A DNA stretch of 63,123 bases, the filler included, from Mycoplasmatota bacterium (GTDB lineage Bacteria > Bacillota_I > Bacilli_A > RF39 > UBA660): NCBI GenBank assembly GCA_012727915.1. It is 12 parts of 12 records of this genome, joined end to end, with 100 filler letters (N's around TTAATTAATTAA, not from the genome) between each part and the next. Parts side by side here need not be neighbours in the genome. Positions count along the whole stretch, not along the records: positions 12,316 to 21,839 come from JAAYGD010000063.1; 11 more parts are not named here. One strand, 5' to 3'. Both the position numbers and the translations under genes were made by a program. Below the pieces are notes generated by a model. The model did no database searches and was not told the DNA's origin. It worked only from the letters and a program-made list of their open reading frames with translations. Positions 10,498 through 56,129 of this stretch are shown here, one piece after another. Each line of letters starts with the position of its first letter. Positions within the stretch are counted from its first letter, which is position 1.

Positions 10498-10597
10498 NNN
10501 NNNNNNNNNNNNNNNNNNNNNNNNNNNNNNNNNNNNNNNNNTTAATTAATTAANNNNNNNNNNNNNNNNNNNNNNNNNNNNNNNNNNNNNNNNNNNN
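10498..10597. other. Artificial contig linker (also at 12216, 21840, 23585, 28699, 44147, 46356, 48884, 56426, 59487, 61089)
   Basis: Identical 100-nt N44-TTAATTAATTAA-N44 spacer with stops in all six frames. Confidence 0.97.
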
Positions 10598-12315: not shown

Positions 12316-13399
12316 ATAAGCAAGCAGAGAGACTACCATATTGAGTTAATCCTACTATCATATTAATAATAAATGGTAATAAGAATAATAAAGCGGTTAA
12401 TCCAATTCTTTTCATAAAATCAGAAGTTGCTTTTTTAACTGCTTTTTGATCTTCTGCAGCAACAGCTTTCAATAAATCTAAAGTACCGAACACTAGTGCA
12501 ATTATAGGAGCTAGAATTCTCATCCAAAACCAAATGGGTCCAGTAATTTCTTTAAAAGCATCGCAAGTAACCTCACCACCCGTATCTATCGGATTATTAG
12601 GTTCAGTAGTATTTCCGTTAGTTGGTTTTGTTGGGGTGGTATACTCATCACATTTATAACAATATTGACCTTTTCTTACCCAACCTTCTTGACATACTTT
12701 TCTGCTTTCGTATCCTCCACCAGCCACATATTTATCGTTAAATCCATCCTGTACTGTTTCAATAATAATAACATCACTTGGATCGTTATTCGAAGGATAG
12801 CAACGATTTTGTGGTATAGATTCATATGTCCATGAAATATTGTAACCCAATGGATGAATATAAGTTTTACAAACATCAATTTTTGATGTGTTTGATACCG
12901 AAAAATCGTAAATAACACATTTTCCTCCACCGTTTGCTTGATTAAATGTTTGTTGATTTGGATATGAAGGATTCTCTGGATTCTCTGGATTTTCAGGGGT
13001 TTTTATTTCACATTTATAGCAATAATCATCTTTTCGAATATAACCGGTTTTACAAACTTTTGAACCGACTTGTTTAGGATTAATATCTATAGTTTCCAAG
13101 TAAGAAATAGTAATGTGTTTCCATACATCATCCATACCATTATTTTTTGTATCAATTAACAAAAATATTTGCTCGTTACTTGTACAATAACACCCTGTTT
13201 CAAGTCCTACTTTCTTATAGTCATAAGATAAATTTATATTTAAGCTACTTGTTCCTAAATTTGAACAAACTTTTTCTTTGATTGCTTTAGTAGTATCTTC
13301 AACAAAGCAATTTGGTTCATTAATAATATCGGCATTTACATCATCATTAAAAATAAAAAATAAAACAACTATTAATATAATTTTATATAATTTATTCAT
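12316..13399 (-). CDS. Secreted Cys-repeat protein with C-terminal TrbC/VirB2 pilin-like TM hairpin
   Basis: Signal peptide; two KVCxxGxxRKxxYCYKC repeats; PEN x3; C-terminal RILAPIIALVFGTLDLLKAV...KRIG...LFLLPFII. Confidence 0.6.
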
Positions 13400-13477
13400 A
13401 ATATCACCTTAATTTTATTATAACATCTTTGTTTTCAAATGACATAAATAAATGGTATAATATGTAAAGGTGATGTT

Positions 13478-14452
13478 ATGGGGCTTTTTAATAAAATAAA
13501 AACAATCTTTTCAAAAAAAGAATTAGAATTATATGATAAAGGTTTTGAAAAAACAAGAGATAATTTTGTTTCAAGCTTAAATAATTTATCTAATAAGTAT
13601 AAAACTCCTAATGATTTATATTTTGATGAATTGGAAGAAATATTGATTTCAGCTGATATTGGAGTAAACACAGTATTAGGGTTCATGGACAGAATAAAAA
13701 ATAGAGTAAAAAAAGAAAATATTGATGATTTAGAAGAATTACAAGAAATAATTGTGGATGAATTATTTATTATATATGTGGAAGATGATGTTTTAACTAA
13801 TAAATTAAATGTTAATGATAATGGACCTACAGTATTATTATTTATTGGAGTTAATGGAGTAGGCAAAACTACAACTATTGCTAAGGTTGCAAATTTATTA
13901 AAGAAAGGTAATAGTAAAGTATTATTAGTAGCAGGAGATACTTTTAGAGCGGGTGCTATTGAGCAATTAATAGAGTGGGGTAAGAGAGTTAGTTGTGAAG
14001 TTGTTTCAATGGAAGAGTCTTCTGATCCTTCTGCTGTAATATATAAAGGAATAGATAAAGCAATTAAAGAACAATATGATTATGTATTAATTGATACTGC
14101 GGGAAGACTTCAAAATAAAGTTAATCTTATGAATGAACTTGAAAAGATGAATAAAGTAATAGGTAAATTAATACCAAATGCTCCACAAGAAACATTATTA
14201 GTAATAGACGCTACAACTGGTCAAAATGCAATTAATCAAGTAAAAAGTTTTAAAGAAATTACTAATGTAACTGGAATAGTATTAACTAAATTAGATGGTA
14301 CTGCAAAAGGTGGAATAGTATTAGCAATTAAAGAAGAGTTAAAGGTACCTGTTAAATATATTGGTTTAGGTGAAGGATTAGAAGATTTAAAACCATTTGA
14401 TATAGAAAAATATATATATGGATTATTTAAAGGAATGATAAAAGATGAATAA
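13478..14452 (+). CDS. ftsY: Signal recognition particle receptor
   Basis: GVNGVGKTTT, DTFRAGA, DTAGRLQ, TKLDGTAKGG. Confidence 0.97.
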   Translation: MGLFNKIKTIFSKKELELYDKGFEKTRDNFVSSLNNLSNKYKTPNDLYFDELEEILISADIGVNTVLGFMDRIKNRVKKENIDDLEELQEIIVDELFIIYVEDDVLTNKLNVNDNGPTVLLFIGVNGVGKTTTIAKVANLLKKGNSKVLLVAGDTFRAGAIEQLIEWGKRVSCEVVSMEESSDPSAVIYKGIDKAIKEQYDYVLIDTAGRLQNKVNLMNELEKMNKVIGKLIPNAPQETLLVIDATTGQNAINQVKSFKEITNVTGIVLTKLDGTAKGGIVLAIKEELKVPVKYIGLGEGLEDLKPFDIEKYIYGLFKGMIKDE

Positions 14453-14741
14453 TAAAATAGTGTTATTATATGATATATATGGCAAATTATTAACTGAAAA
14501 GCAAAGATTGTATTTTGAAGAATATTATTTTAAAAATTTGTCATTATCTGAAATAAGTGATACTTATAAAGTAAGTAGAAATGCTATACATAAGCAATTA
14601 AAGGTAGTTGAGGAATTATTAATTAATTATGAAAACATTTTAAAAATAAATAAAAAAACAGAATTATTGAACAAAATAATTGAAAATATAAAAGATGAGG
14701 ATTTAAAAAATATAATAAGTAAATTAAATGATAGGATGTAG
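14445..14741 (+). CDS. ylxM: YlxM SRP-associated HTH protein
   Basis: YGKLLTEKQ and LSLSEIS...VSRNAI; lies between ftsY and ffh. Confidence 0.9.
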   Translation: MNNKIVLLYDIYGKLLTEKQRLYFEEYYFKNLSLSEISDTYKVSRNAIHKQLKVVEELLINYENILKINKKTELLNKIIENIKDEDLKNIISKLNDRM

Positions 14742-14744
14742 ATT

Positions 14745-16043
14745 ATGTTTGAAAATTTAAGCGATAGATTACAAAAAGTAGTAAAAAATATTAAAGGTTA
14801 TGGAAAAATAACTGATGAAAACATTGGTGATATTTTAAGGGAAGTAAGATTAGTTTTACTTGAAGCTGATGTAGATTATACTGTAGTAAAAGAATTTACT
14901 AATAAAGTAAAAGAAAAAGCTTTAGGAGTAGAAGTTCAAACCAGTTTAAAACCTAGTGAAGTTTTTTTAAATATATTAAAAGAAGAATTATTAGAATTAT
15001 TAGGAGAAAATGATTCGAAACTAGTTAATAATAATTTTAATATAGTAATGCTTATTGGATTACAAGGTAGTGGTAAAACTACAACTGTTGGAAAATTAGG
15101 TAAATTAGTTAGAAAAAAATATAATAAAAAACCAATTTTTATAGCGTGTGATATATATAGACCTGCCGCTATTGACCAATTAAAACAAATAGGAAAAGAA
15201 TTAGATATTTATGTATATTCAAAAGAGTCAAAAGATCCAGTTGATATTGCTGTAAGTGGTATTAAATATGCTAAAGATAATGGATATGATTATGTATTTA
15301 TAGATACTGCAGGTAGACTACATATAGATGAAGAACTTATGATAGAACTAAAAAATATTGAATCAAATACTAAACCTGATGAAATATTACTCATTATAGA
15401 TTCAATGATTGGTCAAGATTCTATTAATGTTATAAAAGGTTTTAATGATAATTTGAAAATAAGTGGAGTAATATTAACAAAATTTGATGGAGATACTAAA
15501 GGTGGGGTTGCCTTATCTGTAAGACATATTACTAATATACCTATTAAATATGTAGGTATTAGTGAAAAATTAGATGGAATAATTGAATTTGATCCTTCAA
15601 GAATGATTGGTAGAATATTTAAAGAAGGGGACATTTTAAGTTTAATGGAAAAAGCTGAAGAAGTAATCGATAAGGAAGAAGCTAAGGATTTAGCTAAAAA
15701 AATAAATAAAGGGAATTTTAATCTAGAAGATTTCTTATCTCAATTAAAACAGATAAAAAAATTAGGGCCTCTAGAAAATATTATTAAAATGGTTCCTGGA
15801 ATGTCTAAATATGGATTAGATAAAGCTAATATAGATCCGAAGCAAATGTCTCATATTGAGGCTATAATTCAATCAATGACTCCTAAAGAAAGAAGAAATC
15901 CAGATATAATAAAATCTAGTAGAAAACAAAGAATATCTAAAGGTAGTGGTACATCAGTTCAAGAGGTTAATAAATTATTAGATCAATTTGAACAAATGAA
16001 AAAAATGATGAAAATGTTTAAGAATGGTAATTTAAAATTTTAA
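14745..16043 (+). CDS. ffh: Signal recognition particle protein
   Basis: GLQGSGKTTT, DIYRPAA, DTAGRL, and M domain SMTPKER. Confidence 0.97.
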   Translation: MFENLSDRLQKVVKNIKGYGKITDENIGDILREVRLVLLEADVDYTVVKEFTNKVKEKALGVEVQTSLKPSEVFLNILKEELLELLGENDSKLVNNNFNIVMLIGLQGSGKTTTVGKLGKLVRKKYNKKPIFIACDIYRPAAIDQLKQIGKELDIYVYSKESKDPVDIAVSGIKYAKDNGYDYVFIDTAGRLHIDEELMIELKNIESNTKPDEILLIIDSMIGQDSINVIKGFNDNLKISGVILTKFDGDTKGGVALSVRHITNIPIKYVGISEKLDGIIEFDPSRMIGRIFKEGDILSLMEKAEEVIDKEEAKDLAKKINKGNFNLEDFLSQLKQIKKLGPLENIIKMVPGMSKYGLDKANIDPKQMSHIEAIIQSMTPKERRNPDIIKSSRKQRISKGSGTSVQEVNKLLDQFEQMKKMMKMFKNGNLKF

Positions 16044-16053
16044 AACGAATAAT

Positions 16054-16947
16054 TTAATTTATTCGTTTTTTTATTTCTAGTATTTTACTTTTAGTTCCTA
16101 TGCTTTGTCTATTAAAATCTAATTCTTTTAATATTGAATTAATATTATATTTACTATGAGATAATTCAATCATTTTATATATTTTATTTAAAGAATTTGA
16201 TTTAAGATAGTCTTTGTATAATTCATCAGACAATAAATAAGAATATATATATACCAAATTATATTCAAATTCTTCAGAGTCTTCTTTAAATTTTGATTTT
16301 TTAATATTAGAACTATCATTATAAAGAAACAAATTAACATAATCATCTATTTCATCTAATCCCGAGAAAACCAAATAACAACTCATATTTTCTTCTGATG
16401 AAATATCTAATCTCGGATATTCCTTATTTAAATAATCATTTAACAATCTTGGAATTAATTGTGAAATGGTTTCTGTCTCTATTTTTTCTTTAACAATATA
16501 ATTGTTTGAAAAATGAGCATCTATTGCGTGCCCTACTTCATGAGAAAGCATATGTAATAAACTTTCAATATTATAACTATTAACATAAATATTATGAAAT
16601 TCTTCACCTGCACTAATTAATAATTTATTTAAACTGCTTTTATTTGATAGAGTAAAATCAAAAAAATACATTCCAGATTCATCTTTGTTTAAATCTCTTT
16701 CAATTACTATAGCATCTTTACTAATCAAATTATTAAAAACATTTAACATTTTGGGATCCAAATCATTAAGAAAATTTCTAATTATGTTTATTGCGTCTCT
16801 CACATTATAATCGATATTTTCTTTTTCAGTATCTTCAATTTCAAAACCATTTATATTTTTTACAATTCTTTTAATTTGATCACTATAAAAATCTGGATAT
16901 TTCATCTTTCTTTTTTCAAACAATTTTATTATTTTATCTTCTTTCAC
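16054..16947 (-). CDS. M3 oligoendopeptidase-like zinc metallopeptidase (short form)
   Basis: HEVGH, downstream ETIS third-ligand Glu, and YIYSYLLSDELY helix. Confidence 0.55.
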   Translation of the reverse strand: MKEDKIIKLFEKRKMKYPDFYSDQIKRIVKNINGFEIEDTEKENIDYNVRDAINIIRNFLNDLDPKMLNVFNNLISKDAIVIERDLNKDESGMYFFDFTLSNKSSLNKLLISAGEEFHNIYVNSYNIESLLHMLSHEVGHAIDAHFSNNYIVKEKIETETISQLIPRLLNDYLNKEYPRLDISSEENMSCYLVFSGLDEIDDYVNLFLYNDSSNIKKSKFKEDSEEFEYNLVYIYSYLLSDELYKDYLKSNSLNKIYKMIELSHSKYNINSILKELDFNRQSIGTKSKILEIKKRIN

Positions 16948-17878
16948 TGTTTTCTCTCTTTTTTGCTAATATTAGTTCTTTATAGTGATCTATACCTTCA
17001 ATGTTTCCGTTTGCGATTTCCCACAACTCTCTTCCTCTTGTGCCATGATGATTTTTATTTAAAAATTCATCCACTCTTGTAAAAGAAGGTTCTATTGTAT
17101 TATTTGAAAACATAAATAAAGCACAATAATTTGATGTTATATGTTTTGGTAATTGTTGTCTTTCTTCTTTTGTGTATAAAATGTTAACTCCTGAATCAAT
17201 TTCTTTACTTAAAGCAAATTTTTCTTCTATATGTTTTGTTATAGTGTTTCTTATTTCTTCCTTTGTTTTTCTATCATAAAACTCTAACATTGATAATTCT
17301 AAAAAAGTTGGAAAAGCATCTTTTAATAATATTGAGTCTTCTCCAAATTTTTTATCGCTATTAAAAGTTTTATAAGTATTACTATATTTGTTTTCATCAA
17401 TATGGACTTGATAAGCATAACCAAACTCTCTAATAAGCATGATTTTTTCGTTTTCAAGGCTATTAGAATTTACATATATGAAATATTCGTTTTTTAATTC
17501 ATCTATATAATGAGTACTGTAATTTTCTTTATCATTTCTAGTTAAATATAATCTATTTTTATTAACTAAATCACAAAAAAAATCATAATATTTTTCGTTG
17601 AATTGTTTCAAAAATAAAGAAACACTATCAACGGCATATGAATGATATGCTTCTTCGTCATTCAAATCCATATCAGAATTATTATCAATAAACGCTGATG
17701 AATCGTATTTTAAATCATCTTCTTCTTCAAAGGTGTTACTAAAAACTTTTTTAAGCTTGCTATAAACCACTAAATTAAATATTAAATATATAGCTTCATC
17801 TAAACTTTTTGAATTAAAAAACAAATCATATACTTCATCATACCTTTTTTCTATTTCTTTCTTATTCCATTTATACAT
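16934..17878 (-). CDS. M3-peptidase-like paralog with degenerate active site
   Basis: REFGYAYQ at the HExGH position and DAFPTFLE; overlaps the next gene. Confidence 0.5.
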   Translation of the reverse strand: MYKWNKKEIEKRYDEVYDLFFNSKSLDEAIYLIFNLVVYSKLKKVFSNTFEEEDDLKYDSSAFIDNNSDMDLNDEEAYHSYAVDSVSLFLKQFNEKYYDFFCDLVNKNRLYLTRNDKENYSTHYIDELKNEYFIYVNSNSLENEKIMLIREFGYAYQVHIDENKYSNTYKTFNSDKKFGEDSILLKDAFPTFLELSMLEFYDRKTKEEIRNTITKHIEEKFALSKEIDSGVNILYTKEERQQLPKHITSNYCALFMFSNNTIEPSFTRVDEFLNKNHHGTRGRELWEIANGNIEGIDHYKELILAKKRENSERR

Positions 17879-17929
17879 AAACCCTCATTTCTAAATATAT
17901 AATATATTAATATTTCGTTTTGTCAATAT

Positions 17930-17958
17930 TTTACAAAATATAAAAAATATGTTAATAT
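17930..17958 (+). promoter_or_regulatory. SigA promoter of the OLE RNA
   Basis: TTTACA-17 bp-TAATAT with extended -10 TG; predicted start ~17965. Confidence 0.7.
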
Positions 17959-17965
17959 CTTAATC

Positions 17966-18537
17966 GTGGTGCTGTATCCTAGTAGATTACTTATTTTGAA
18001 AAACGGGGTTCATTTAGACCTGTTTAAAGAGCACAACTGTGAAACTTCTGGTGATTGCCTCTATACGCCCAGTTTGGGGTTTTTGCTGGAAGATTTGAAT
18101 AAAGGGCCATCATAATGGCATATGTAAGAGGACCCTATATTCTCGGAGACTCACGATTGTGTATAGCTTATGAATTTAAGACTATATACGACTTGAGATT
18201 AAACCTATTTTGCGGTGAAAAGCTGTGGATAGTGTAGCTTGCCTTGAGCGAGTATACGGAATTATAGATAGATTTTTTAAGTTTAGGCCAAACTTACTAA
18301 ATTATTACTATATGAAATTATACTTGCAAAATAGACTATAAATAAGTATCTTTGAAGAAAATTCCTAGGCCAGATATCAATTAAAGATTAAAGTGTGTAC
18401 TAAGTGGCAATCAAGTCATATATGTAGTAATACTATATCTATTCTTTTAAAGGGGAACCGCAGTTTGGTAACAAAATGTAAGAATAGGGGAAAACCTACT
18501 TGACCTAAGACGCAATATTTCTTTATTTGATTACCAC
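17966..18537 (+). ncRNA. ole: OLE (ornate large extremophilic) RNA
   Basis: ORF-free, GC-enriched 572 nt carrying OLE-like blocks in order: GTGGTGCTGTATCCTAG, TGAAACTTCTGGTG, AATGGCAT, GTAGCTTGCCTTGAG, AAAGTGTGTACTAAGTGG, GGGAAAACCTACTTGACCTAAG. The 5' GTGGT pairs with the 3' ACCAC, and oapA is on the same contig. Confidence 0.88.
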
Positions 18538-18540
18538 ATA

Positions 18541-18570
18541 AAAATAAGAAGTATAAACTTCTTTTTTTTA
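18541..18570. terminator. Bidirectional intrinsic terminator after ole
   Basis: AAGAAGT-ataa-ACTTCTT followed by a T-run, with an A-run upstream. Confidence 0.7.
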
Positions 18571-18924
18571 TTGTTTATATAAAATTTTATTTTTTGCAGT
18601 GTCTAATAAATTTATTTCTTCTTTTAAATATATACCGTTTGTCTTTAATCTATAAGAATTTGAATATAGAATATTATCAATTAAAACAATAAATGCTCTT
18701 GTTTCTATATTGTGTTTATTTAACATATAATTAGTTAAAGTATTAGCGCCTCCAATACTTCTACATACCCAAATACCACCAAAATCACTTACACCCTCTC
18801 TTATTTGATCTTTTTCTAAATAATACCATTTTTGAGGAATAAATGTTAAAATATTTGGATTTTTTCTTAATCCCAATGATTTTAATTCTTTTGTAAAAAC
18901 CTTATAATATATTTTCTCTTTCAT
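18568..18924 (-). CDS. Hypothetical protein convergent with ole
   Basis: 118-aa ORF; GGTGA SD; TAATG coupling to the upstream frame. Confidence 0.7.
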   Translation of the reverse strand: MKEKIYYKVFTKELKSLGLRKNPNILTFIPQKWYYLEKDQIREGVSDFGGIWVCRSIGGANTLTNYMLNKHNIETRAFIVLIDNILYSNSYRLKTNGIYLKEEINLLDTAKNKILYKQ

Positions 18925-19663
18925 TATCTCACCAATCTTTTTACTAATTCTTCATTTTCATTACAAAAAACATCTTTATTTGTAGAATTAATAAATTGTT
19001 CTAACGTTCTTATTTTACTATTTATTACTAAATTATAATCGATATTATTTTTAACGTTTTTTGTTTTTCTAAAGTAATCTATTGCTTTATATTTTCCTAA
19101 ACAATATAAAGTTGTTTCATGAAAATAAAATAGAGGTCCTGTTTTACTTTGTTCTTTTAATTTTTCTATTTTATAATCATCGCTACTAGAGTTATAGATA
19201 TCAAAATATGTTTTTAATAAAGATAATTCATAATTAATATCTTTGACATATCTTTTTTTAAGAATATTGATCTATTCATAGTTAAATCGCTTACTAAATT
19301 GGGAGTATTATTAAATATTTTTTTAAAAAATAAATCCATTGAATTTATTGCTTGGTTTTCAAAATAATCATGATTAATTGTAATTGAATTATATTTATAT
19401 TTCCTTTCTTGTTGATTTAGTAATTGTTTAAAAATATTGGAATTTATTATATTTGATTTTTTCATGTTTTCTTTTTCTGTTTTTGCAATACTTAGAAAGT
19501 ATTCATCTGATTTATTACAATATTCAATGCGATTAACAGGTTTTCCTTCAATAAAATCATCAATATAATTATAATTATCTAATATTATTTTAGAGTGTTT
19601 ATTATTATTATTTAATAATCTAAATTTATTTTTTTTAATTATATCTTCATCCCAAGAATACAT
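18924..19663 (-). pseudogene. Third M3-like paralog, frameshifted or internally deleted
   Basis: N-terminus MYSWDE resembles MYKWNK of 17878. A second frame open from ~19255 reads ...TTLYCLGKYKAIDYF...LVKRLVR* to TAA at 18924. No HExxH segment. Confidence 0.55.
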
Positions 19664-19708
19664 TTTTACCTCACAAATTGTTTTTTATACTATCATAATA
19701 CATATAAA

Positions 19709-19737
19709 TTTACAATCAGAACAAAATATGTTAATAT
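19709..19737 (+). promoter_or_regulatory. SigA promoter of oapA, near-identical to the ole promoter
   Basis: TTTACAA-N7-AAAATATGTTAATAT. Confidence 0.7.
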
Positions 19738-19752
19738 TTTATCGAGGTTCAT

Positions 19753-20268
19753 ATGAAAAACAATAGATATAGATGGGTTTTATTTGTTACTATTTTATCA
19801 TTTATAATAACAATAGTATTTTCAGTATTATCTGATTTTATTTTATCTAAAACTGGTTTGGTAATAGGAATTGTTATTATACTAACTTTTATATTACTTG
19901 GTGTATTGTTTGATATGATAGGTGTTGCAGTAGCATCCGCAACCGATAGATCATTTCACGCTATGGCATCAAAGAAAGTAAAAAGCACAGGAACTGCAAA
20001 AAATTTAATTAAGAATTCATCTAAAGTATCTTCTATATGTAACGATGTTATTGGAGATGTTTGTAATATAATGAGTGGTACTGCAACAGTAGTAGTATCT
20101 AATAATATATCAACTAATTATGATTTAAATCATACAATTGTGTTATTAATTATTACAAGCATAGTAGCATCCCTTACTATAGGATTAAAAGCTTGGGGAA
20201 AAGATATTGCCTTGAAACAAAAAGATATTATAATAATGAAAACTGCAAAAGTATTAAATAGAAAATAA
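19753..20268 (+). CDS. oapA: OLE-associated membrane protein A
   Basis: GVLFDMIGVA, FHAMASKK, CNDVIGD (DxxxD), SLTIGLKA; multi-TM. Confidence 0.88.
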   Translation: MKNNRYRWVLFVTILSFIITIVFSVLSDFILSKTGLVIGIVIILTFILLGVLFDMIGVAVASATDRSFHAMASKKVKSTGTAKNLIKNSSKVSSICNDVIGDVCNIMSGTATVVVSNNISTNYDLNHTIVLLIITSIVASLTIGLKAWGKDIALKQKDIIIMKTAKVLNRK

Positions 20269-20271
20269 TTC

Positions 20272-20289
20272 TTCATATTTCTATCACAT
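20272..20289 (+). promoter_or_regulatory. Putative OmpR-family response regulator box
   Basis: TTCATATTtcTATCACAT; 16/18 match to the copy at 21575. Confidence 0.55.
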
Positions 20290-20310
20290 TATTGTTATAT
20301 AAATAAGAGG

Positions 20311-20661
20311 GTGATGTTAATGAAATTATTAGTGGTTGATGATGATGCTAATATTAGAAACATAATTAAAGAATATGCATCGGTTGATAATCATAATATT
20401 ATTGAAGCTTATGATGGAATAAGTACTTTTAAAATGCTTAAAGAAAACGAAGTTGACTTAATAATATTAGATATAATGCTTCCTGATATGAGTGGGTATG
20501 AAATTGCTAGAAAGATATTGTTAGAAAGAAATATTCCTATATTAATGTTATCTGCTAAGAGTGAAATTGATGATAAATTAGAAGGTTTTGATTCTGGAGC
20601 TGTCGATTATATTACAAAACCTTTTAGTCCAAAAGAGTTAATAGCGAGATTAAAAGTATAA
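20311..20661 (+). pseudogene. OmpR-type response regulator, receiver domain only
   Basis: VVDDD, LDIMLP, DYITKPFS; stops at ARLKV where the linker to the wHTH should begin. Confidence 0.7.
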
Positions 20662-21571
20662 TCTATATGGTAATAAAATAGATGATTATTTTGTTGTATT
20701 TATTTCTAAATTAGATCCTATAGAATCTACTACGTCTATTATAGGAAGACAATTAATTTATGTTATGATAATATCAATTTTTATTGCGATATTTATATCA
20801 ATAAGATTATCTAAGAAATTATCTAAACCAATTATTTCTATTAATGAAAAATCTAAAGAATTAGGTAAAGGAAATTTTGATATTAAATTTGATGAGAATG
20901 AATATTTAGAATTACAAGAATTATCAAACACTTTAAATGAAACAACAAATAAATTAAAAGAAAAAGATAAACTTCAAAAAGAGATAATTTCTAATGTTAG
21001 TCATGACTTAAAAACACCTTTAACTATTATTAAAGGATATTCAGAAGTAATAAGAGATATAAAAAGTAGTAAAGAAAATAGAAATATAAAATTAAACAAT
21101 ATAATTAATGAAGTTGATAATTTAAATTTAATGATAAATAATTTGTTGGAAACATCTAAATTAGAAGTTGATAATTATTTAAAATTAGAAAAAACTGATA
21201 TATCTAAGGTAGTAGATAAAGTAATAAATAGATTGGATAAGATTATTAAAGATAAGAATATTGTAATAAATTATAGTAGTAATAAATTGATTTCTAATGT
21301 AGATAAAGATAAGATAGAACAAGTTATATATAATTTGTTAATAAACGCTATTAATCATGTAGGAAAAGATAATACTATAATAATTAATATTAATGATAAT
21401 ATATTAGAAATAACAGATCATGGTAAAGGAATAGAGGATACCACACATAATAGTAAAACATCTAATGGATTGGGTCTTTATATAGTAAAAACAATATTGG
21501 AAAAACATAATTTAGAGTATGGAGTAGAGAGCAAAAAAAATATATTTACAAAATTTTGGATAAAGTTTTAA
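20654..21571 (+). pseudogene. Sensor histidine kinase lacking its N-terminus (first ATG at 20765)
   Basis: TM, HAMP, SHDLKTPL, NLLINA, DHGKGI, GLGL; frame is open back to 20654 with no start or SD. Confidence 0.7.
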
Positions 21572-21574
21572 TAT

Positions 21575-21592
21575 TTCATATTCATATCACAT
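21575..21592 (+). promoter_or_regulatory. Second copy of the putative response regulator box
   Basis: TTCATATTcaTATCACAT upstream of a secreted-protein gene. Confidence 0.55.
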
Positions 21593-21629
21593 AGAGAATG
21601 TATTATTAATTTAGAAAGGAGGAAATATT

Positions 21630-21839
21630 ATGAAAAAAGTATACTTAATAGTAGCTGGTGTTCTAATATCTGCGCTTACAATTACAGCAGTTAATGCTGA
21701 GACTACAAGAACTCCTAATAATCCGAATAATACATTAGAGAATAAAGTACAAGTAATAGATCAAATGGTTAAAGATGGAGAACTTGATGCAGTTACAGCA
21801 AAAGAAATTAAAGAAGAATTAGAAAATTGTGATGGTACA
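21630..21839 (+). CDS. Secreted protein, DUF2680-like (3' truncated)
   Basis: Signal peptide ending AVNA; DQMVKDGEL...NCDGT. Confidence 0.6.
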
Positions 21840-54026: not shown

Positions 54027-55184
54027 TTATTTATTAATAAGTCTTATATATTCATCATAAACTTCTTTAGCAATAGTATCCCATGTTTTATATAAATCTT
54101 TATGTGCATTTTCACTAACTTCATTATAATGTTTTTCATCATTAAGAATATCTATAATTTTTTTAGCGAATTTTTTAGGATTATTTTTTCCAAAAAATCC
54201 ATTTACTTCACTAGTAACTAAAAAAGCTGTTGGTGCATTTTCAATAAATATTGTTGGAGTTTTTTGACTAGAAGCTTCAATTTGAACTAGTGAATTTGTA
54301 TCAAATAAAGATGGGAAAACGAACAATTTTGCTCTTCGATAAATCTTAGCAAGTAGCTCTCTGTCAGTTATTTTACCACACATAATAACATCATTATTCA
54401 AATCAAATCTATTAACCTTTTTAATTAATTTATTTTTGTCTGGACCTTCACCAACAAAAAGCATCTTGAATTTTTTCTTTTTATCTTTTAATATCTTTAG
54501 GACATCAACTATAAACATAATGTTTTTTACTGAAGTAATTCTTCCAACAAACAAGAAGACAATATCATCTTGTTTAATATGATATAACTTATTAATTTCT
54601 ATATCGGACTTTTTCTTGTTCTCAATTAATTTTAAATCTGTAGCATTTTGAAATATTTTTACTTCTTTACTATAACCATATTCTTTATATATTTCTCCAA
54701 TTTTTTTATTAACTGAAAAACACTGATCACACTGTTCATAAACTTTTATAGCTTGATTAGTTATTAAATCAGTTATTGCGTGTGATTTAGTATATTTATA
54801 TAATTCAAATTTCATTAGTGTGTGCATTGTTCCAATTACAGGTATATTTAATAATTTAGCAACATCTATTCCTAATTTGCCAAGACTAAATGGAGAATGA
54901 ATATGAATAATATCAAATTTTTCATTGACTAATCTTTTTAGTATTTTAATATCCATTTTAGGTATTCCATATGTATAAGTAGTTAAAGGTATTTTTATAC
55001 TTTTAACTCTAATTACTTTATAGTCAAACTTAATACCTCTATCTTTTAATCCATAAGAAGGACATACTACTACAACTTCACACTTTTTAGATAATTTTTT
55101 AGCATAATTATCTACAACCATTACAACTCCGTCTATCATTGGAAAGTAACTATCTATAAACAAACCTACTTTAATTTTTTTCAT
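54027..55184 (-). CDS. GT4 glycosyltransferase (diacylglycerol glucosyltransferase-like)
   Basis: DSYFPMIDGV, IIHIHSPF, TMHT, FVFPS. Confidence 0.85.
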   Translation of the reverse strand: MKKIKVGLFIDSYFPMIDGVVMVVDNYAKKLSKKCEVVVVCPSYGLKDRGIKFDYKVIRVKSIKIPLTTYTYGIPKMDIKILKRLVNEKFDIIHIHSPFSLGKLGIDVAKLLNIPVIGTMHTLMKFELYKYTKSHAITDLITNQAIKVYEQCDQCFSVNKKIGEIYKEYGYSKEVKIFQNATDLKLIENKKKSDIEINKLYHIKQDDIVFLFVGRITSVKNIMFIVDVLKILKDKKKKFKMLFVGEGPDKNKLIKKVNRFDLNNDVIMCGKITDRELLAKIYRRAKLFVFPSLFDTNSLVQIEASSQKTPTIFIENAPTAFLVTSEVNGFFGKNNPKKFAKKIIDILNDEKHYNEVSENAHKDLYKTWDTIAKEVYDEYIRLINK

Positions 55185-55858
55185 AACTCACCTACTATAT
55201 CATTAATAACATAACTTGAACATAATAAACCAGCGGTTAAAGGGACAATACTATTTGAACCTACTGGTTTACTTATTTTTAAAGGTTGCTCTGTTGAAGA
55301 AACTACATTAACATGATTAATACCAATATGTTTTAATTCTTTTCTAATAATTCTTGCTAATGGATCGTATTTTGTTTTACTTATATCTGTTATTTCTAGT
55401 TTTGAAGGATCAAATTTATTCCCTGTTCCCATTGAACTTATTATATTTATATTTCTTTTAATACAATTTTGAATTAATAATAATTTAGTATCAACAGTAT
55501 CACAAGCATCAATAACATAATCTATCTTATATTTAAATAATTCATTAATATTATCTTTATCTAAAAATAAGTCTAATATTATTACATTACATTCATTATT
55601 AATTTTTTTAATTCTTTTTTCTGCCACATATACTTTTTTTTGATTAATATTGTCATTTAGAGATAATATTTGTCTATTTAAATTAGATACATCAACAATA
55701 TCATAATCTACTATTATAATATTCGATATACCACTTCTAACTATAGATTCTAAAGCCATACCACCTACTCCACCTAAACCTATAATGGCAACTGTAGTAT
55801 TCTTTAATTTATATATATTTTCTTTACCAATCATTATTTCTAATCTATTTAACCACAT
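55181..55858 (-). CDS. tcdA: tRNA threonylcarbamoyladenosine dehydratase (ThiF family)
   Basis: GLGGVG, SNLNRQ, SSMGTG, DPLAR; true start is 55858 because the longer ORF overlaps 6S RNA. Confidence 0.88.
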   Translation of the reverse strand: MWLNRLEIMIGKENIYKLKNTTVAIIGLGGVGGMALESIVRSGISNIIIVDYDIVDVSNLNRQILSLNDNINQKKVYVAEKRIKKINNECNVIILDLFLDKDNINELFKYKIDYVIDACDTVDTKLLLIQNCIKRNINIISSMGTGNKFDPSKLEITDISKTKYDPLARIIRKELKHIGINHVNVVSSTEQPLKISKPVGSNSIVPLTAGLLCSSYVINDIVGEL

Positions 55859-55871
55859 ATAACCACCAAAA

Positions 55872-56054
55872 ATCCCATAGATACGAGAATCAATTGCGAT
55901 AAACCCCTGCATATTACAGGTGGGCACCACGATGTAACTTTTAGGATTCCTACAACACTTAATGGATAGGCATTCACAAACACCAGCTATATCTTTCGGT
56001 TCCCTAATTATCGACTTAGTCGGATTTATGATTGATCCTCAAAATCTATAGGAT
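55872..56054 (-). ncRNA. ssrS: 6S RNA
   Basis: Terminal stem ATCCTATAGAT/ATCTATGGGAT; GGGAACC and GGTGCCCACCTG...CAGG motifs; TG-n-TACAAT -10; upstream of tcdA/yrvM as in Bacillus. Confidence 0.85.
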
Positions 56055-56129
56055 AAACTAATTGTAGCATACGTTATAAATAATTTATAGTTTATAAAAG
56101 TTTACATAATGGTTTTTTACTAATATAAT

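Follow-up and report, generated by a model that had tools for sequence, protein, structure and literature searches.

A full-length OLE RNA with a rewritten L4 loop and a separately promoted oapA gene in a reduced-genome Mycoplasmatota bacterium

OLE is a known large RNA of bacteria, located at the cell membrane. The closest described systems are the full-length OLE RNAs (Rfam RF01071) of Halalkalibacterium halodurans and of Clostridium acetobutylicum and C. botulinum (cryo-EM 9MCW, 9LCR). According to a table in PMC12990946, the two cryo-EM OLE RNAs are 577 nt and 578 nt long, and the particle is described as a dimer with three bridges (PMC12286853, PMC12191101, PMC12265935). Bridge B1 consists of four A-A pairs between the L4 loops, described as highly conserved, B2 joins L5 with L6, and B3 is formed by the palindromic L9.3 (PMC12286853). 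As for protein partners, OapB needs the GNRA loop and one-base bulge of P13 (PMC7936274), G-C pairs matter most in the contact between P6 and bS21 (PMC12054373), and the k-turn and OapC are treated in PMC9723947. In bacteria of the TANB77 and RF39 clades, which have reduced genomes and are largely without OapB and OapC, Fernando and Breaker (2024; PMC11332333) described shortened OLEs. According to this source, variant 2 (RF39 clade) has neither P7 nor P8; the source also already puts forward the idea that reduced genomes point to a minimal core.

Here we describe an OLE RNA found in a stretch of 63,123 nucleotides (the window) from a Mycoplasmatota bacterium. The window is a series of contigs, each joint being a 12-base linker with 44 N on either side (e.g. 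10498-10597), and ORFs across these joints are artefacts. The OLE locus lies well within the contig spanning positions 12316-21839. The RNA has the class features and structure of OLE, occurs in RNA libraries, and is followed 1.2 kb downstream by an oapA gene with its own promoter; the inventory of its other known partners is given below. Our explanation is that this is a functional full-length OLE RNA, transcribed alone, with its start at a SigA promoter and its end at an intrinsic terminator. We hold this explanation, taken jointly and with its function argued by analogy, to be probable.

Identity, structure and size of the OLE RNA

Positions 17950-18553 (+) match RF01071 over model positions 1-616, scoring 333.7 bits against a cut-off of 50 (E 2.3e-94). 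This full-model match bears out the assignment to the OLE family made in an earlier note on this DNA, and it is the only OLE copy in the genome. From GTGGT (17966) to ACCAC (18537) the RNA counts 572 nt, no ORF of at least 60 aa overlaps it, and its GC content is above that of its flanks (0.343 vs 0.216 and 0.207). The motifs named in that note were all found in place, and its descriptions of an AU-rich RNA (GC 0.34 vs 0.42-0.52 in 14 named isolates) and of a reduced-genome host (873 kb, 25% GC, 93.8% complete, 76 contigs) hold. The 572-nt RNA has the size (~600 nt) and the covarying P1-P15 architecture of the class. It is more stable than shuffled sequences (z -3.1; 0/100 shuffles equally stable) and retains 115 of the 125 columns conserved at >=95% elsewhere.

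Table 1. Features of the ole-oapA locus, in window coordinates
Feature	Coordinates	Strand	Basis or remark
314-aa gene diverging from ole	16934..17878	-	promoter TTGACA-16-TATTAT at 17926-17899
SigA-type ole promoter, TTTACA-N17-TAATAT, extended TG	17930..17958	+	kept in 7/7 genus loci; 7 nt before OLE 5' end
OLE RNA core, P1 to P1	17966..18537	+	RF01071 match with flanks 17950-18553; RNA-library contigs tile 17975-18537
P2 triplet CUG, 5' side, pairs with CAG 18371-18373	17972..17974	+	central pair A-U to U-A in genus
P4 hairpin, 7-bp stem, 11-nt loop 18008-18018 (GUUCAUUUAGA) replacing A-rich L4 (bridge B1)	18001..18025	+	genus/family loop comparison
L5 loop GCCCA (bridge B2, with L6)	18067..18071	+	RF01071 alignment; bridge from PMC12286853
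L6 loop AAUGGC (bridge B2)	18114..18119	+	RF01071 alignment
P7 hairpin, present (absent from published variant 2)	18150..18197	+	RF01071 alignment
P8 hairpin, present (absent from published variant 2)	18205..18232	+	RF01071 alignment; covariation
P9.3 hairpin, palindromic GGCC loop (dimer bridge B3)	18279..18295	+	RF01071 alignment; bridge from PMC12286853
P13, one-base bulge U18423, GNRA loop GUAA = OapB site	18418..18438	+	RF01071 alignment; site features from PMC7936274
P14 (CUAUUCUU/AAGAAUAG)	18439..18487	+	RF01071 alignment; 142/152 cells paired in 19 homologues; covaries
Intrinsic-terminator-like hairpin and U run	18546..18569	+	sequence; similar hairpin in 7/7 genus loci
118-aa gene, no known family, between ole and oapA	18568..18924	-	~74-86% identical in 3 genus relatives
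Broken HEXXH-family gene between ole and oapA	18927..19663	-	~76 codons missing and frame change; intact 326-334 aa in relatives
oapA promoter, matches ole promoter	19709..19737	+	promoter comparison; 28/41 bases identical
oapA, 171 aa, four-helix membrane protein, CNNM/CorB-related (weak predicted-fold match)	19753..20268	+	homologue loci, motifs, predicted model

The closing stem GTGGT/ACCAC (P1), the pair CTATTCTT/AAGAATAG (P14) and AAGTTT-AGGCC-AAACTT (P9.3), all proposed earlier, are genuine OLE helices. The proposed helix CTATTTTGC/GCAAAATAG (18205/18326) found no support. Its complementarity is real in this sequence, and some perfect 9-bp pair arises in 64% of 500 shuffles. Among 19 homologues 76.9% of its cells are paired, with 1/9 pairs changed on both sides, and 130 of 500 shuffles score as high. 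The rival consensus helices P8 and P9.1, which use the same bases, reach 96.4% of cells paired with 13/19 pairs changed on both sides, a level seen in 0/500 shuffles. Covariation thus favours P8 and P9.1, and the competing helix was dropped; with a plain-fold probability of ~0.44 it may act as a folding trap in vitro. Furthermore, the central base of P2 is A in 74/74 near-full-length OLEs outside the genus and U in all seven genus rows, where the partner has changed too.

In terms of size, the earlier description of this RNA as compact or shortened is not borne out. The 572-nt core falls inside the range of the 14 named isolates (555-600 nt, median 583), three of which are shorter, as are 39 of 83 distinct non-genus OLEs (a set from which four loci repeating genus genomes had been removed). 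In the suggested check for lost stems, the main stems proved to be all kept, including P7, P8 and a long P9, and only a small hairpin around model positions 423-434 is reduced. The same hairpin is likewise reduced in six aligned relatives.

Seven relatives from the family (L020-L026) do carry variant 2-like OLEs, of 357-471 nt, with 11-22 nt in the P7-P8 region vs 87 nt here. The published minimal-core idea applies to these relatives and not to the 572-nt OLE, because the latter matches the full model and keeps P7 and P8.

Very short OLE matches (378-389 nt, 134-159 bits) were observed at L026 (G027:C2:10798-11186), L223 (G184:C5:12168-12545) and L224 (G078:C2:57162-57542). The L026 RNA has lost P7, P8 and most of P9, and its L5 and L6 are unrecognisable in the alignment; L4 and an adjacent oapA are kept. 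As candidates for a minimal OLE core, these three surpass the 572-nt RNA.

As for distribution, OLE is present in 7/7 genomes of the genus, in 104 of 151 family genomes and in none of 24 sampled genomes of other families. The family comprises over 200 genera, with genome sizes of ~0.4-1.7 Mb. Some records titled "uncultured Muribaculaceae" (L027-L031, L070, L082, L104) carry Bacillota-type ole and oapA and are probably mislabelled.

Transcription, oapA and the other partners

The SigA promoter claimed earlier stands on its conservation, the site being kept in 7/7 genus loci; a plain scan, with 19 sites vs 14.6 +/- 4.3 expected, does not rise above chance. The terminator fared similarly. A hairpin followed by a U run is found after OLE in 7/7 genus loci, and the scanner, whose rule demands 3 G-C pairs, makes no call on the + strand. 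This hairpin probably also terminates the convergent 118-aa gene.

Parts of 17700-18800 are contained in 19 RNA runs. Four runs from four studies were compared over 16900-20500: near-identical contigs lie on OLE in 4/4, none on 16900-17867, and only short pieces are found elsewhere. Run X1 tiles 17975-18537 with one differing letter, and its short pieces at 18562-18595 are T-run matches. The RNA-library contigs thus indicate that OLE is transcribed as a stable RNA. In relation to the ~570-nt transcript suggested as a check, they cover OLE, and as assembled contigs they do not give strand, level or true ends. The oapA gene is almost uncovered; this gap, on oapA as on the flanking genes, says nothing on the expression of those genes.

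The oapA gene lies 1.2 kb downstream of ole, behind two genes on the opposite strand. In the five genus genomes that have both on one contig the distance is 1.1-2.4 kb, again with opposite-strand genes between. Of 101 other family loci, 90 have the oapA start no more than 226 nt from ole, nine show no oapA within ~900 bases, and two end too early. With these nine loci, the idea that the separation is unique to the genus was rejected.

The gene is identified as oapA from its company and its motifs. OLE was found upstream of OapA homologues at 17/17 loci by Rfam search (17 of the 80 fetched) and at 76 of 80 by nhmmer, and OapA occurs in 24 of 25 other OLE-positive family genomes vs 0/11 OLE-negative ones. 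The motifs FHAMAS and CNDVIGD are invariant across 10 aligned OapA proteins. For a model predicted from a 10-row alignment (pLDDT 82.5), CorB/CNNM chains are the top-ranked structures, though the match is weak (best E 4e-3, none <=1e-3; TM 0.50-0.57, 0.55 for the best E). The Pfam and NCBIfam searches gave no family name for OapA or the four flanking ORFs, and a solved OapA sequence was looked for and not found.

OapA is the only CNNM-like match of the genome, with a PF01595 score under the cut-off, and the PF01595 search found no full MpfA. A strong CNNM/MpfA match is present in only one of 36 other family genomes (G011, OLE-negative). Of the 11 OLE-negative genomes, the remaining 10 have no OapA and no MpfA match, so the family can manage without either device.

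The ole and oapA promoters are alike, and they are the only two sites of the genome with the pattern TTTACA-N13-15-TGnTAATAT. The 314-aa gene, which lies upstream of ole, and the broken HEXXH gene diverge from one of these promoters each and are related as paralogues (hhalign 96.1%, E 3e-9). Both features would follow from a duplication of the HEXXH gene together with a two-way promoter. We consider that such a duplication probably separated ole from oapA and left the matching promoters. The locus also suggests that the two need co-regulation rather than co-transcription. A separated ole and oapA with matching promoters was not found described in the OLE literature searched.

Several observations concern the neighbouring genes. 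The 118-aa gene has no Pfam or NCBIfam match, and the ESM Atlas clusters closest to it (0.96) consist of hypothetical proteins from viruses. The broken junction of the HEXXH gene is also seen in an independent contig (L135). At 16054-17878 (-) there are two ORFs of ~300 aa without family match; the 297-aa ORF has HEXXH, and both resemble the 326-aa family in a profile comparison. At 20311-21571 (+) a response regulator (residues 1-116 of 218) is fused into a histidine kinase (118-433), ~650 nt shorter than in relatives, which is a deletion or a misassembly. Broken neighbouring genes on the contig are a sign of local decay. Directly upstream of the OLE locus, 13478-16043 (+) holds the signal recognition particle genes ftsY-ylxM-ffh, and ffh is also upstream of OLE in L028 and L012. 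The genus member L030 has an additional gene of 278 aa after ole (L030:1714-2550, +), which may be KilA-N-like. Lastly, elsewhere in the window, a 6S RNA (RF00013, 57 bits) at 55868-56057 (-) overlaps the start of the ORF 55181-55930.

OapB and OapC are likely absent, the suggested searches of the genome for oapB and oapC having found neither. With a genome 93.8% complete in 76 contigs, these absences, like that of MpfA, are read as "not found". For OapC (YbxF, L7Ae family) no PF01248 match was obtained in this genome or in 36 other family genomes, nor any before rpsL; the five reference OLE genomes all have it. For OapB (YbzG), a profile of five reference proteins gave a best E of 1.8 in the genome and 0/61 in relatives, a set without a known OapB-positive genome. 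In the host, map and infA overlap; ybzG stands before infA in 5/5 reference genomes. P13 retains its GNRA loop and one-base bulge although oapB was not found. The bS21 gene is present, and P6 keeps its G-C pairs without the exact CCUCCU anti-SD mimic.

The L4 loop and the dimer bridges

The sequence of L4 has been rewritten in this genus. An 8-nt L4 with UAAA is found in 83/83 distinct non-genus OLEs from Bacilli and Clostridia. UAAA is likewise present in 100/100 intact family loci outside the genus, shortest variants included (97 by pattern and three by reading, one of 101 loci being 5'-truncated; this count overlaps the 83-OLE set). The variant 2-like relatives, too, retain the A-rich L4. 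The genus L4 (7/7 members) has 10-14 nt, begins with an invariant GUUC and contains no UAAA. Runs of A reach at most two in six members, and one member keeps a shifted A5 run. In terms of the cryo-EM dimer model, the A-rich L4 of bridge B1 is thus missing, with UAAA in 0/7 genus rows. The sequences of B2 (L5 GCCCA, L6 AAUGGC) and B3 (palindromic L9.3) are intact in 7/7 rows.

The genus L4 pattern occurs in four of 401 family genomes, all belonging to the genus. The seven genus genomes form one lineage, so the L4 change counts as one event. An assembly error was ruled out: over all 572 nt there is 100% identity to L135, a contig obtained independently from a metagenome, and the RNA contigs of four studies show either this loop or the genus allele 18013A.

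A scan of metagenomes for the genus L4 returned six stretches, only one of them an OLE. Searching for the canonical L4 pattern with two mismatches was uninformative, since nearly every genome matched and so did the reversed control. For the genus, a P4 longer by 2 bp was also considered and set aside; it does not correspond to the minimum-energy fold. No report of the L4 variant was found in the OLE literature searched, though the OLE alignments in the supplement of PMC12054373, the largest published, or a supplement of PMC12286853 may already hold it.

With L4 rewritten, the dimer would rest on B2 and B3 or on an altered B1. It is possible, on balance doubtful, that a functional OLE-OapA complex without OapB and OapC, its B1 removed or rebuilt, forms a natural test of the OLE dimer in which the A-A helix is not needed. 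With loop cores of AAUA, AAUU and AUUU, a symmetric contact of four pairs could arise in which Watson-Crick and U-U pairs replace A-A. Such a rebuilt contact possibly acts together with genus-specific changes in OapA. In three genus rows, OapA has L where 148 of 158 other proteins have G, and N where 144 of 158 have G and 12 others also have N; linking these changes to L4 is speculation.

The locus offers a natural variant at one of the three cryo-EM dimer contacts, in an RNA otherwise selected and expressed. If the A-A helix is indeed not needed, a contact near-invariant in the other OLEs examined would be dispensable, and B2 and B3 with OapA would be the core of the dimeric membrane particle. 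The chemistry of OLE is a long-standing open question, to which the 572-nt copy brings no minimal core. It makes a narrower question testable, namely whether the L4 A-A bridge is necessary for dimerisation and function.

Proposed function and comparison with known systems

By analogy with the OLEs of other Bacillota, the RNA most likely folds and dimerises through the kissing loops L5/L6 (B2) and L9.3 (B3). It would bind the CNNM-like membrane protein OapA, the membrane binding being taken from cited work. At the membrane, the OLE-OapA complex may then control the flux of divalent cations (Mg2+) as well as stress responses, and may stand in for the MpfA-type transporter missing from the genome, as PMC11332333 and PMC12265935 lead us to infer. 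The complex would be reduced to RNA and OapA, probably with bS21, without OapB or OapC. A minimal OLE-OapA membrane complex for Mg2+ and stress homeostasis is, on this analogy, the likely outcome.

The earlier note read the locus as a compact OLE revealing the minimal essential core. Such a reading could draw on the reduced AT-rich genome, on OapB and OapC not being found and on the one small hairpin that is reduced. It is extremely improbable, and is already refuted for the 572-nt OLE by its full-model match: the length is ordinary among named isolates, P7, P8 and P9 are present and covary, and shorter OLEs exist in relatives, those of 357-471 nt in the same family corresponding to the published variant 2 (PMC11332333). 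A decaying OLE is another reading, in which relaxed selection accounts for both the rewritten L4 and the distance between ole and oapA, and the dimer or complex is malformed. Five of the 10 deviating conserved columns do fall within P4/L4, the score (334 bits) is low among full-length family members, genus OapA shows the G-to-L change described above, and broken genes lie nearby. Against this, OLE is retained throughout the genus and present in the RNA libraries of four studies, its new loop start GUUC is invariant in 7/7, the B2 and B3 loops are unchanged, compensatory changes are found, and oapA is intact behind its own matching promoter. The OLE is not simply decaying, as 115 of 125 conserved columns are kept and the two bases of the P2 pair are exchanged in 7/7, and we regard decay as improbable.

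A further reading concerns function. PMC11332333 and PMC12265935 propose for OLE itself the role of a catalyst (a ribozyme) or of a hub for stress signalling ("bTOR"), which would leave OapA as a mere anchor and ion transport as secondary. The conserved 3' domain, P13 loop and bulge included, is kept here without the known protein OapB, which speaks for this view. On the other side, the consulted portions of both accounts show no activity, OapA has a predicted CNNM-like fold, and OapA strictly co-occurs with OLE. We find the catalyst or hub reading rather unlikely, and prefer the complex of OLE with OapA acting on Mg2+ and stress homeostasis.

The locus holds a genuine OLE RNA whose size is ordinary, and its host is of a type already known to have OLE without OapB and OapC. 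Like full-length OLE, it matches the whole model (572 vs 577/578 nt), has P3-P9 and P12-P15, the L5/L6 and GGCC L9.3 dimer loops and the P13 GNRA loop with its bulge, and is accompanied by oapA nearby and bS21 in the genome. Unlike full-length OLE, it is AU-rich, has an L4 without the A-rich B1 loop, a swapped P2 pair and a P6 without the exact CCUCCU mimic, and is transcribed alone, apart from oapA, with oapB and oapC not found.

With variants 1 (TANB77) and 2 (RF39) of PMC11332333 it shares a reduced-genome uncultured host and the missing OapB and OapC. Since the variant classes of that source are bit-score bins of another model, the comparison here is by structure: unlike variant 2, the RNA keeps P7 and P8, and unlike variant 1, described there with shortened P7-P9 and an OapB site at P13 that is often missing, it keeps a long P9 and the P13 site. 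Finally, OapA resembles the MpfA/CorB/CNNM Mg2+ transporters in its predicted fold, and differs from them in consisting of the membrane domain only.
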